Below are positions 38,045 through 48,317 of a stretch of DNA of 64,000 nucleotides, piece by piece (position 1 is the stretch's first letter; the number at the start of each line of letters is the position of its first letter). The position numbers were made by a program, and so were the translations under genes. This DNA is from a virus (Duplodnaviria; Caudoviricetes), in the IMG/VR virus record IMGVR_UViG_3300010429_001449, one strand, 5' to 3'. Under the pieces are notes generated by a model that was not told where the DNA came from, did no database searches, and was given only the letters and a program-made list of their open reading frames with translations.

Positions 38045-38833
38045 GTGACATGGAATCCTGAAAGTCTGAAACATCTGAACTCGCTAACCAAGTTTCCGTC
38101 GATTTTCCAACCGTGGGCGGCGGTACAGCAAGACAAGCGACCGTGCTACGTCGGCGACATCATTTCCAACAAGTTCAGCCAATCTGTGTTCCGCGTCACC
38201 GAGAAGGTGGACGGAACCAATGCGCGGCTGATCGTTACGGACGATGGATGGTTCATCGGCGCTAGAGAAGAACTGCTGGCCTACAGCTACGACTTGCTGG
38301 TCCACGAACAGAACTTCATCGTGGAGACCTTGCGGCCTATCGCCGAAGTCGTTGCCCACGGCATTGCCGAAGGCTTGCGGAACGAACCGTTTGGCGCGGT
38401 CGTGCTTTACGGAGAGGTGTTCGGCGACGGTATCCAGAAACGGTACCGTGGACAGCCACGCGGTTTCCGCGTGTTCGCAACCCGACGTTGCATGTGGGAA
38501 GTCTCGCCGAATCCCCAAGTCTGGCGGCAAACCAGCACGGGCTTCGACTTTCGAGGCAGTCTCAATGCGGCGCAAGAATTCGTTGACGCCTACGGGCGCG
38601 GCGTGTTGACTACCGTACCCGACCTAGGTTGGGTTTCCGGCGACGTTCTCGCCGATCCCCGCGCTGCGCTGGCGTGGCTAAGACGGTTTTCCGACTCCCG
38701 CGCCGTGCCGGGCGCTCAGTGCGAAGGCGTAGTGTTACTGAGCGACGGCGACTACACGAAGGCGGACGACGGCAGTCTTCAACGGAACATCCACAAGATC
38801 AAGTTTGAGGATTTTCCGAGGGAGTGGCTATGA
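38045..38833 (+). CDS. ATP-dependent RNA ligase (Rnl2-like adenylation domain)
   Basis: Motif I TEKVDGTN, III LYGEVFG, IIIa FRVF, IV EGVVL, V KIK. Confidence 0.85.
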   Translation: MTWNPESLKHLNSLTKFPSIFQPWAAVQQDKRPCYVGDIISNKFSQSVFRVTEKVDGTNARLIVTDDGWFIGAREELLAYSYDLLVHEQNFIVETLRPIAEVVAHGIAEGLRNEPFGAVVLYGEVFGDGIQKRYRGQPRGFRVFATRRCMWEVSPNPQVWRQTSTGFDFRGSLNAAQEFVDAYGRGVLTTVPDLGWVSGDVLADPRAALAWLRRFSDSRAVPGAQCEGVVLLSDGDYTKADDGSLQRNIHKIKFEDFPREWL

Positions 38834-44902: not shown

Positions 44903-45018
44903 CTTTACGACCTCCACAAAAAGGTTTGTTTTGTCCATCCGTCCTACCTCTATTATAACAGCAGGACGGCCTATGTCAAGTATTATAACAGCGAAACCGC
45001 CGTTGTCAATACAGAAAA

Positions 45019-45527: not shown

Positions 45528-46067
45528 CTAAACTGACGCTTCTATCGCGTCGCTGCACTTGGGCGAAGAAGGCGGCGGCTCTGGCGGTTCTGCCGGAGGC
45601 AACTCCGCGAGGGGCACTACGGCTGGCGCGGGCTTCGGCTCTTCCAGGCCAACAACCACGCCGCTGACAGAGAACACGGCGGCGGGCTGCGATAAGACGA
45701 ACTTGGGGTCTTTCCGCGCCGCTTTGATCTCCTCGGCGAGCACGGCGCGAGGATCGGTCGTTTGATAAAACTTGGGGTTGACGCTGTACTCGACGTTGAA
45801 TGTCAGTGTGAGACGAAGAGGCACTCCGCCGCCGTCCTCCGTGACGCGAGTGATAATCGCTTCCGGAACGAGACTGGCAATGGGGAGCGAGAGCGCCTGA
45901 ACAAACTGGCCCTGGATACTGAGAGGCCGTTCCAATGCCACGATGCAAATGCCCTGCGACACCTGCTGCGGGTTCTGCGTGTGGATCGTTGCCGCCGCGC
46001 CGTGCCACGGCTGGTAAGGGTCGTTGATCGTAACCCTTGCGCCCATCTGAACTTGTTCTTGAAGCAT
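45528..46067 (-). CDS. Hypothetical protein
   Basis: AAGGA RBS; Pro-rich tail. Confidence 0.7.
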   Translation of the reverse strand: MLQEQVQMGARVTINDPYQPWHGAAATIHTQNPQQVSQGICIVALERPLSIQGQFVQALSLPIASLVPEAIITRVTEDGGGVPLRLTLTFNVEYSVNPKFYQTTDPRAVLAEEIKAARKDPKFVLSQPAAVFSVSGVVVGLEEPKPAPAVVPLAELPPAEPPEPPPSSPKCSDAIEASV

Positions 46068-47349: not shown

Positions 47350-47460
47350 TGGTGGGCGGCTGGCCGGATTCACACCGACATTCTCACCGAGAAGGATCGT
47401 TGTTGCAGACCACTTCCTTCTAATTGTGAGACCTTACCAGGCTGCAAAATGCAGCCGCCC
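47350..47460 (-). ncRNA. Enlarged tRNA-like RNA 1 (111 nt)
   Basis: GGGCGGCTG/CAGCCGCCC-A-CCA closing stem, T-arm GTCGG-TGTGAAT-CCGGC, elongated middle arm. Confidence 0.7.
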
Positions 47461-47470
47461 GAAAACTGTT

Positions 47471-47585
47471 CGCGGCTGGCCGGGTTCATCCGTTCCGCCT
47501 TTGGGTTTGTGGCGGGTAGCTACTCCCGCTCTCACGCGCCCTGGTACGCTCCGTAGGGCATACGATCCCAAGATTACGCAGCCGC
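47471..47585 (-). ncRNA. Enlarged tRNA-like RNA 2 (about 115 nt)
   Basis: GCGGCTG/CAGCCGC stem; 3' GAACCCGGCCAGCCG junction; no encoded CCA. Confidence 0.6.
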
Positions 47586-47596
47586 TAAAGATTGCG

Positions 47597-47759
47597 TGGC
47601 GACTGGCCGGTTTCCTCACCCGGCTCCCATTTGGTCACGGACGGCCCAATGTTGGCTTCACAGAAGCTCCGAACCAAGAGCAATATGTTCACAGCTTCTC
47701 AGCAACTCTGACGCGCCGCGTTGAATTGCAACCAGACGATTGCTTCGTCTCAGTCGCCA
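47597..47759 (-). ncRNA. Enlarged tRNA-like RNA 3 (about 163 nt)
   Basis: TGGCGACTG/CAGTCGCCA stem; GCCGG-GTGAGGAAA-CCGGC arm; internal hairpins. Confidence 0.65.
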
Positions 47760-47767
47760 AAAATGAC

Positions 47768-47842
47768 TGGCCAAACGGGGAGGAGTCGAACCCCCCTCTC
47801 CCGTTGTACATCGGGTGTTCTGCCATCTGAACTACCGTTTGG
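47768..47842 (-). tRNA. Atypical tRNA, 8-nt anticodon loop (identity undetermined)
   Basis: D arm GTTC/GAAC, CCCG-ATGTACAA-CGGG, GGTTCGACTCC, CCA. Confidence 0.6.
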
Positions 47843-47850
47843 TCGAAACC

Positions 47851-48020
47851 GCTGACTGGCAGGATTCCCCACCCTGCTCCGCACGGAAGCATTGCGCGTT
47901 ATTCCGTGGCATCGGGCCGTCTCACTGTCCCCCGGCTTCCACCGAGTCGCGGCTCGTCTCTGAACTAACGGTTCTCGTCGTCCAGACTCTTACCCGACCA
48001 GCGCACTGGCCGCAGTCAGC
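47851..48020 (-). ncRNA. Enlarged tRNA-like RNA 4 (about 170 nt)
   Basis: GCTGACTG/CAGTCAGC stem; GCAGG-GTGGGGAAT-CCTGC arm; internal hairpins. Confidence 0.65.
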
Positions 48021-48026
48021 AGAAAC

Positions 48027-48171
48027 TGGCTGCTCGCGGGGAGGATTTGAACCCCCGTCCACAGACCCAAGCGTCTGGCGACGCTTGTTCGCGGCGCGGC
48101 CTACCCCGCCAGAGGCATGACCGCTTAGCCCGCAGCCTGCGTGTTTTAAGCCAGACCTAAACTACGCGAGC
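48027..48171 (-). ncRNA. tRNA-like RNA with about 70-nt structured insertion in place of the anticodon loop
   Basis: GCTCGCG/CGCGAGC acceptor, D arm GTTT/AAAC, CGCAGGC/GTCTGTG stem, GGTTCAAATCC, CCA. Confidence 0.7.
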
Positions 48172-48190: not shown

Positions 48191-48317
48191 GTACGACAAC
48201 TCAGGTCATCTTACCATCCTCCGCAAGAAATGTCTCGGCGAAACAGCAAAGACAATCACTCACGTCTGACACTGTTATTATAACAGCGGGGAGGAAGATG
48301 TCAAGAGATTTTTCCGA

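Follow-up and report, generated by a model that had tools for sequence, protein, structure and literature searches.

That bacteriophage tRNA clusters include stable tRNA-like RNAs whose function is unknown is an old observation, with species 1 of phage T4 and RNA1-3 of phage T5 as examples. In the tRNA cluster of T5, RNA1 (144 nt) and RNA2 (125 nt) are annotated as 'tRNA-like stable RNA with unknown functions' (GenBank AY543070). RNA1 (L029:3502-3645) has the appearance of an interrupted tRNA: with introns allowed, ARAGORN reports a tRNA-Leu(UAA) that carries an insert of 40 nt. All 487 of 487 T5-like records keep RNA1 at full length, including the insert. In an alignment of nine T5-like sequences with 75-100% identity, ten base pairs display compensatory changes, among them pairs in helices within the insert; the core of the insert is invariant, and no constant sequence is found at the would-be anticodon loop (UUAAAA, UCAUAAA, CGAAAAC). 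Since the insert is kept and covaries while the 'anticodon' is not conserved, RNA1 of T5 represents a kind of non-decoding tRNA-shaped RNA in which the insert is the selected part, and not an intron-bearing tRNA. The drift of its loop means that a canonical-looking loop in one member does not imply decoding, and RNA1 as a whole teaches that a tRNA restored by deletion of an insert does not show splicing.

Oversized tRNA genes have also been described in Lak megaphages, where the removal of an insert of tens of bases from the anticodon region leaves normal tRNAs (Devoto et al. 2019, PMC6784885). These 'enigmatic' short introns fall into no known intron class, and their splicing route is unknown (PMC6784885). 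The intron of the Tyr gene is predicted just 3' of the anticodon and contains the GGTTCGAATCC motif, and the intron of the Thr gene may itself encode a tRNA (PMC6784885).

The locus considered here, element E, lies in a window of 64,000 nucleotides taken from a virus record of 268,817 bp that is estimated to be 77% complete. The tRNA genes of the window are on the minus strand. The parts of E and the promoter preceding it are as follows.

48277..48304 (-): consensus sigma-70-type promoter, TTGACA, 16 nt, TG-TATAAT, matching at 12/12 positions, ~100 nt upstream of E
48027..48171 (-): element E, the whole gene of a 145-nt tRNA-shaped RNA (sequence reading, fold)
48165..48171 (-): 5' strand of the acceptor stem, GCUCGCG, pairing with 48038..48032 over 7 bp
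48143..48162 (-): D arm with a GUUU/AAAC stem and a 12-nt loop containing A14, G15, G18G19 and A21 (sequence, ARAGORN drawing)
48137..48141 (-): 5' strand of the anticodon stem, CGCAG, forming the lower 5 bp of helix P1 (fold, ARAGORN)
48072..48136 (-): insert of 65 nt (E36-100) between the 5' strand of the anticodon stem and position 32, its boundary ambiguous by 1 nt (ARAGORN 'cgcag-Intron-cttgg', deletion scan)
48091..48133 (-): P2, a long bulged hairpin of 43 nt within the insert, with the apical loop UGGC (MFE and centroid folds)
48068..48087 (-): P3, a perfect 8-bp hairpin, CAAGCGUC-GCCA-GACGCUUG (fold)
48065..48071 (-): would-be anticodon loop CUUGGGU, that is C32 U33 U34 G35 G36 G37 U38 (ARAGORN, fold)
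48060..48064 (-): 3' strand of the anticodon stem, CUGUG (fold, ARAGORN)
48057..48059 (-): variable loop GAC, 3 nt (sequence, ARAGORN drawing)
48040..48056 (-): T arm, GGGGG-UUCAAAU-CCUCC (fold, ARAGORN)
48039 (-): extra C that separates the T stem from the 3' strand of the acceptor stem (sequence, ARAGORN)
48032..48038 (-): 3' strand of the acceptor stem, CGCGAGC (fold and ARAGORN drawing)
48027..48031 (-): tail A-G-CCA, consisting of the discriminator A, one additional G and CCA (sequence)

Read on the minus strand, E begins with G1 at 48171 and ends with the A of its GCCA tail at 48027. The original prediction had described a normal acceptor stem, D arm and T arm, and all three are confirmed on the minus strand of 48171..48027. 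U8 and A9 directly follow the 5' strand of the acceptor stem and A26 follows the D arm. The bases of the elbow and the core are all present (U8, A14, R15-Y48, G18G19, A21, G53-C61, T54-Psi55-C56-R57-A58), with C48 of the variable loop able to form the Levitt pair with G15, and the acceptor, D, P1, P3 and T helices are free of mismatches. The body also has irregularities beyond those described originally, namely the extra C at 48039, the 3-nt variable loop and the A-G-CCA tail. The extra C is either a bulge or, in the ARAGORN drawing, part of an 8-nt T loop, and the tRNA call survives its removal. Together with the tail it leaves E with neither an unbroken 12-bp acceptor/T helix nor an N73-CCA end; the latter is found in 44 of the 45 tRNAs called by ARAGORN in the genome, against A-G-CCA in E.

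In place of an anticodon arm E has an arm of 82 nt, which is predicted to fold as a three-way junction of P1 (8 bp), P2 and P3 and not as a single domain, a feature missed in the original description. The dimensions given there are close to what the fold displays: an anticodon stem extended to 7 bp around some 70 nt corresponds to a stem of 7-8 bp, CGCAGGC(U)/(G)GUCUGUG, with 66-68 nt enclosed, and the perfect hairpin with a GCCA loop is P3, at 48087..48068. The last four nucleotides of P3 (CUUG) are at the same time the first four of the would-be anticodon loop, and in the predicted fold all seven of the seven loop nucleotides are paired to the insert. The fold, as predicted, leaves no free anticodon: instead of the 5-bp anticodon stem and free 7-nt loop of canonical elongator tRNAs, the loop bases are buried in the junction. 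Complete pairing of the loop was dropped as a sign of design, as it is seen in 19% of shuffled inserts.

Fold statistics lend moderate support to a structure better than chance. The whole RNA folds at -70.6 kcal/mol (z = -3.1), and the 82-nt arm is more extreme (z = -3.5), with 0 of 200 shuffled sequences equally stable. The 65-nt insert folded alone is no better than its shuffles (z = -0.4), and when the exons are held fixed and the insert is shuffled, 12 of 1000 sequences reach equal stability. The stability is therefore due to pairing between the insert and the exons and not to the insert alone.

At default settings ARAGORN does not call E, and the Rfam tRNA model RF00005 finds no match even at E <= 10 in the 181 nt searched. 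Nor do the Rfam models recognise in the insert a ribozyme, a riboswitch or an sRNA of any known family. A group I intron was rejected, in keeping with the original remark that the insert is too short for one: 65 nt compare with a core of ~200 nt or more, and there is no Rfam intron match. The insert is not a tRNA-shaped mini-intron of the Lak type either, having no T-loop motif, no CCA end and no similarity to tRNAs above that of shuffled sequences (p = 0.23 and 0.68), which also disposes of a nested or duplicated piece of tRNA. Assignment to tmRNA fails on the U3-A70 pair of E, which takes the place of G3-U70, and on the Rfam tmRNA model, which hits the T arm only (13.4 bits); ARAGORN calls a permuted tmRNA at the 80% threshold only. 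YrlA or Y RNA was discarded, with no TROVE gene in the record, no match of RF02553 to E and an opposite topology. Segment E43-51 (GCUAAGCGG) can substitute for E1-7 as the partner of the 3' strand of the acceptor (E133-140), giving an inner tRNA-like fold (48032-48129, minus strand). The Rfam tRNA-Sec model aligns this fold at 18.9 bits and E = 0.15, far below threshold, and it is probably a product of chance.

Running ARAGORN with introns enabled, as had been proposed originally, does recover a tRNA once the threshold is lowered to 90%: E is then reported as a tRNA-Pro(UGG) interrupted by an intron of 65 nt. Deletion of E36-100 (48136..48072) yields a tRNA-Pro(UGG) call at the default threshold. 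The restored tRNA has the 5-bp stem CGCAG/CUGUG in the standard register and the loop C32-U33-UGG-G37-U38, and removal of the 65 nt thereby brings together the tRNA-Pro traits UGG, G37 and A73, but E has G1-C72 where all three tRNA-Pro genes of the phage and the tRNA-Pro of T5 have C1-G72. In GenBank the 3' part of E matches best the tRNA-Pro(UGG) of T5-like phages, though weakly (expect value E = 2), and over the full body 58 of 80 bases are identical to T5-like tRNA-Pro(UGG).

The deletion test establishes a tRNA-Pro-like origin of E and not its splicing, for which the restored tRNA is weak evidence. Among 689 deletions scanned, 30 are called as tRNAs by ARAGORN, and the canonical loop is not unique to the deletion of E36-100: a rival deletion gives Arg(GCG) with a loop that looks equally canonical, and when the registers are counted, chance alone is expected to supply a loop of the form Y32-U33...R37 0.25-0.5 times. 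Any insertion of DNA into a tRNA gene would pass the same test. The restored tRNA remains irregular in its extra C, 3-nt variable loop, A-G-CCA tail and G1-C72 pair. The splice sites, moreover, are unmarked. There is no bulge-helix-bulge at the putative sites, as the original prediction had noted, both sites lying within continuous helices, seven stacked pairs apart; there is no ribozyme match; and the insert is not tRNA-shaped.

The genome has 45 tRNA calls by ARAGORN; three of these, Pro(GGG), Pro(CGG) and Pro(UGG), lie near 230 kb. The tRNA-Pro(UGG), at genome position 230680-230759 (minus strand), is intact; it has an unusually long variable loop of 8 nt, for a total of 80 nt. The phage encodes a CCA-adding enzyme, and the open reading frame at 38045-38833, in which a ligase had originally been recognised, is an RNA ligase of family PF09414. 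In the 268.8-kb phage record, estimated to be 77% complete, searches for the splicing endonuclease EndA (PF01974) and the RtcB-type ligase (PF01139) found neither, and a search of the same record for a Ro60 (TROVE) gene was negative as well. E thus does not show the hallmarks of a protein-spliced intron of the archaeal or eukaryal type, with no bulge-helix-bulge at the sites and neither PF01974 nor PF01139 in this record.

The promoter at 48277..48304 lies ~100 nt upstream of E. On the same strand it is followed by a weak 9/12 site at 45880, and the next consensus site is found only at 45009, which makes E the first RNA of a long array transcript. Downstream of E the array continues with units D, C, B and A; an odd tRNA whose anticodon loop has 8 nt and nine tRNAs of ordinary form complete it. 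Units A-D (47350-48020) are four tRNA-like RNAs without anticodons. They share the transcript with E and have, as E does, tRNA-like ends around an unrelated folded middle, but they differ in their acceptors of 7-9 bp ending in CUG/CAG, in a 9-nt loop of the GUGNGGAAN type and in having no D arm or anticodon stem. With neither that acceptor ending nor the GUGNGGAAN-type loop, E was rejected as a member of the A-D family. The suggestion that it might be a fifth scaffold-plus-payload RNA holds for the general design, a tRNA frame with a folded middle, and fails for the frame itself, which is different from that of the four neighbours. The odd tRNA (47768-47841, minus strand) is 74 nt long, carries CCA and is otherwise canonical, with a 4-bp anticodon stem and the 8-nt loop AUGUACAA; ARAGORN gives its anticodon as 'gtac', and its T arm is nearly identical to that of E. 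Another odd tRNA, called as 'tttt', is present at a different place in the array of the sister phage.

Viral contigs were queried with the flanking exonuclease, the T arm together with the acceptor, the D arm, three patterns running from the anticodon to the T arm and two insert patterns; they contained no homologue of E and gave one chance match in a coding region. A metagenome scan that used the conserved beginning of unit D as its seed returned only the sister lineage, which is without E, and scans of genome collections found no homologue. BLAST against GenBank phages gave only T-arm-level matches to tRNA-Pro genes of T5-like phages and chance matches in coding regions. Within the same genome, the search for paralogues of E with relaxed ARAGORN settings produced false positives only. 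The copies of E, one of them in a second assembly (L002), are 100% identical, and the copies of the same phage recovered through protein synteny agree at 100% over 20.5 kb.

Synteny traced through RecA and an upstream 126-aa protein leads to three other lineages (L007/L024/L017, L022 and L026), all without E; in relatives at a greater distance no tRNA array is found near RecA. In the closest lineage, whose RecA is 70% identical, the array is the same and unit D is nearly unchanged. E is absent from it as a clean indel with edges that coincide with the ends of the RNA, which indicates that E is gained or lost in one piece. In the sister phage, a gene for an acidic protein of 117 codons and a second promoter lie at L007:9080-9447. 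A remnant of this gene, a ribosome-binding site followed by ATG ACC TGA, is seen in the window at 48201-48222 (minus strand), and as nothing else of the gene is left, it must have been deleted in the lineage bearing E. Unit D (47849-48019, minus strand) is almost identical to L007:9510-9690 in spite of the RecA proteins being only 70% identical, which suggests strong constraint on this unit. Its 'GCCAG' is not a CCA end, as the relative reads GCCGG. Unit D is thus kept in the sister phage, and E is not.

The closest parallel to E among the RNAs described is RNA1 of T5. E resembles RNA1 and RNA2 in its size class, in its placement in a phage tRNA cluster, in the complete frame of acceptor, D arm and T arm and in the presence of a structured insert. 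E and RNA1 are each called as a tRNA by ARAGORN in intron mode, and the site of the insert is common to both, immediately after the 5' strand of the anticodon stem ('actgc-Intron-cttaa' in RNA1, 'cgcag-Intron-cttgg' in E). RNA1, unlike E, has the frame of a class II tRNA-Leu with a variable arm, an unrelated insert of 40 nt and no CCA, and its conservation extends over 487 records, against the singleton status of E. A covariance model built from the nine T5-like sequences does find the class II tRNAs of the window and matches E in the T arm only (7.1 bits, E = 0.14); membership of E in the RNA1 family was rejected accordingly. With no sequence kinship beyond the T arm, RNA1 bears on E by analogy only. 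The T4 species 1 RNA (rnaC, 139 nt; NC_000866) is like E in its length of ~140 nt, its location in a phage tRNA array, its canonical T arm, its paired ends and its large structured middle, and unlike E in having no recognisable D arm or anticodon stem and no sequence similarity. The insert of E is different from the introns of Lak phages in being located at 31/32, in having no T loop and in forming a three-way junction with the loop bases.

We favour, with a probability of about one half, the reading of E as the gene of a ~145-nt RNA that has the shape of a tRNA, does not decode and descends from a tRNA-Pro(UGG)-like gene. This reading draws on the build that E shares with RNA1 of T5, which does not decode; on the poor quality of the body as a tRNA-Pro; on the intact tRNA-Pro(UGG) already available to the phage; on a stability that comes from pairing between the insert and the exons; on the position of E at the head of an array with four more anticodon-less tRNA-like RNAs; and on the negative searches of the phage record for genes of a splicing endonuclease, RtcB and Ro60. 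Counting against it, the C32-U33-UGG-G37 loop on a 5-bp stem is exactly the pattern of an intron-bearing tRNA-Pro, the irregularities of E equally fit simple decay, and the sister lineage manages without the element. As a non-decoding RNA, E would be cut from the array transcript by RNase P at G1, trimmed at its 3' end near CCA in the manner of its neighbours, and accumulate unspliced. It would then act through its tRNA-like upper half and the inserted domain, away from the ribosome. It could serve as a decoy or partner of a tRNA-binding protein, either a tRNA-cutting defence enzyme of the host or the RNA-repair or CCA-adding enzyme of the phage.

A decayed gene, which we consider rather unlikely, would explain the same body differently. 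E would be a dead or dying copy of tRNA-Pro(UGG) that received a 65-bp insertion and is drifting, tolerated through redundancy with the gene at 230680-230759 and perhaps still transcribed and trimmed to no function. Two single-base insertions (48039 and 48030), the shortened variable loop, the singleton status of E across the viral, metagenome and genome collections and the GenBank phages searched, its clean absence from the sister lineage and the occurrence of other degenerate tRNA-like genes in the genome, for instance a Val(AAC) gene without CCA, are consistent with such a history. It is made doubtful by the intactness of every stem and of all bases of tertiary contacts, by an arm more stable than 99% of the controls with shuffled inserts, by the prime position behind a perfect promoter and by the comparable RNAs of T5, which are conserved and appear functional. 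An intron-bearing tRNA-Pro(UGG), in which a protein endonuclease would excise the 65 nt, the ligase of 38045-38833 would join the halves and the CCA enzyme would finish the product, we regard as unlikely. Its case is the restored tRNA with a canonical loop in the standard register, the call in intron mode at a relaxed threshold, the weak match of the 3' part to a T5-like tRNA-Pro(UGG), the pairing of the insert with the whole anticodon loop, often seen in introns, the RNA ligase and CCA-adding enzyme of the phage, and the short unclassified introns reported in tRNAs of huge phages (PMC6784885). These points, which lend partial support to the original idea of a non-canonical intron in need of a ligase, are opposed by splice sites that lie inside helices with no bulge-helix-bulge; by an insert that, unlike Lak introns, has neither a T loop nor a CCA end nor any tRNA similarity; by the lack of any ribozyme family match; by a record in which neither EndA nor RtcB is present; by the flaws of the spliced product (extra C, 3-nt variable loop, AGCCA tail, G1-C72) and the normal tRNA-Pro(UGG) elsewhere in the genome; by a loop expected 0.25-0.5 times by chance and rivalled by Arg(GCG); and by RNA1 of T5, which passes the same deletion test and is nevertheless non-decoding. 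That E is a working tRNA-Pro(UGG) with a true intron of an undescribed class, forming a junction with the anticodon loop and having no ribozyme, bulge-helix-bulge or tRNA shape, which an endonuclease of the phage or host would excise before the phage ligase reseals the halves, seems quite improbable.

A conformational role is the least credible. E might act as a switch or mask its 3' end by pairing of the UGGC loop of P2 with GCCA of P3 or of the tail, or through the inner acceptor pairing of E43-51 with E133-140; alternatively, the tRNA shape might merely direct the cuts of RNase P. The UGGC and GCCA loops are exactly complementary and the tRNA-Sec model does align the inner fold with the E43-51 acceptor strand (18.9 bits, E = 0.15), but hairpin loops of four bases are ill suited to kissing, the inner fold is far below threshold, and complementarities this short are expected by chance in a G+C-rich 145-mer. 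We consider this explanation very remote.

If E is a non-decoding RNA, the design in which a complete tRNA frame carries a folded domain at the 5' edge of its anticodon loop is not confined to the leucine frame of T5 RNA1 and occurs also with a proline-type frame and an unrelated insert, suggesting that tRNA bodies are a general means of presenting an RNA domain. Were E spliced instead, it would represent a new type of intron for bacteria and their viruses, and a true intron would imply protein-dependent tRNA splicing in a bacterial virus.

Outside the array, three other stretches of the genome bear a resemblance to tRNA genes. A Val(AAC) call at 205222-205307 (minus strand) looks degenerate, with a mismatched acceptor and no CCA, as does a stretch of 169 nt at 205787-205955 (minus strand) with two partial tRNA bodies. 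Beside a tRNA cluster, a region of 263 nt at 228197-228459 (minus strand), which ARAGORN calls at a relaxed threshold only, has at its end a T-arm-like hairpin followed by an acceptor strand and ACCA, and may be another oversized tRNA-shaped RNA.
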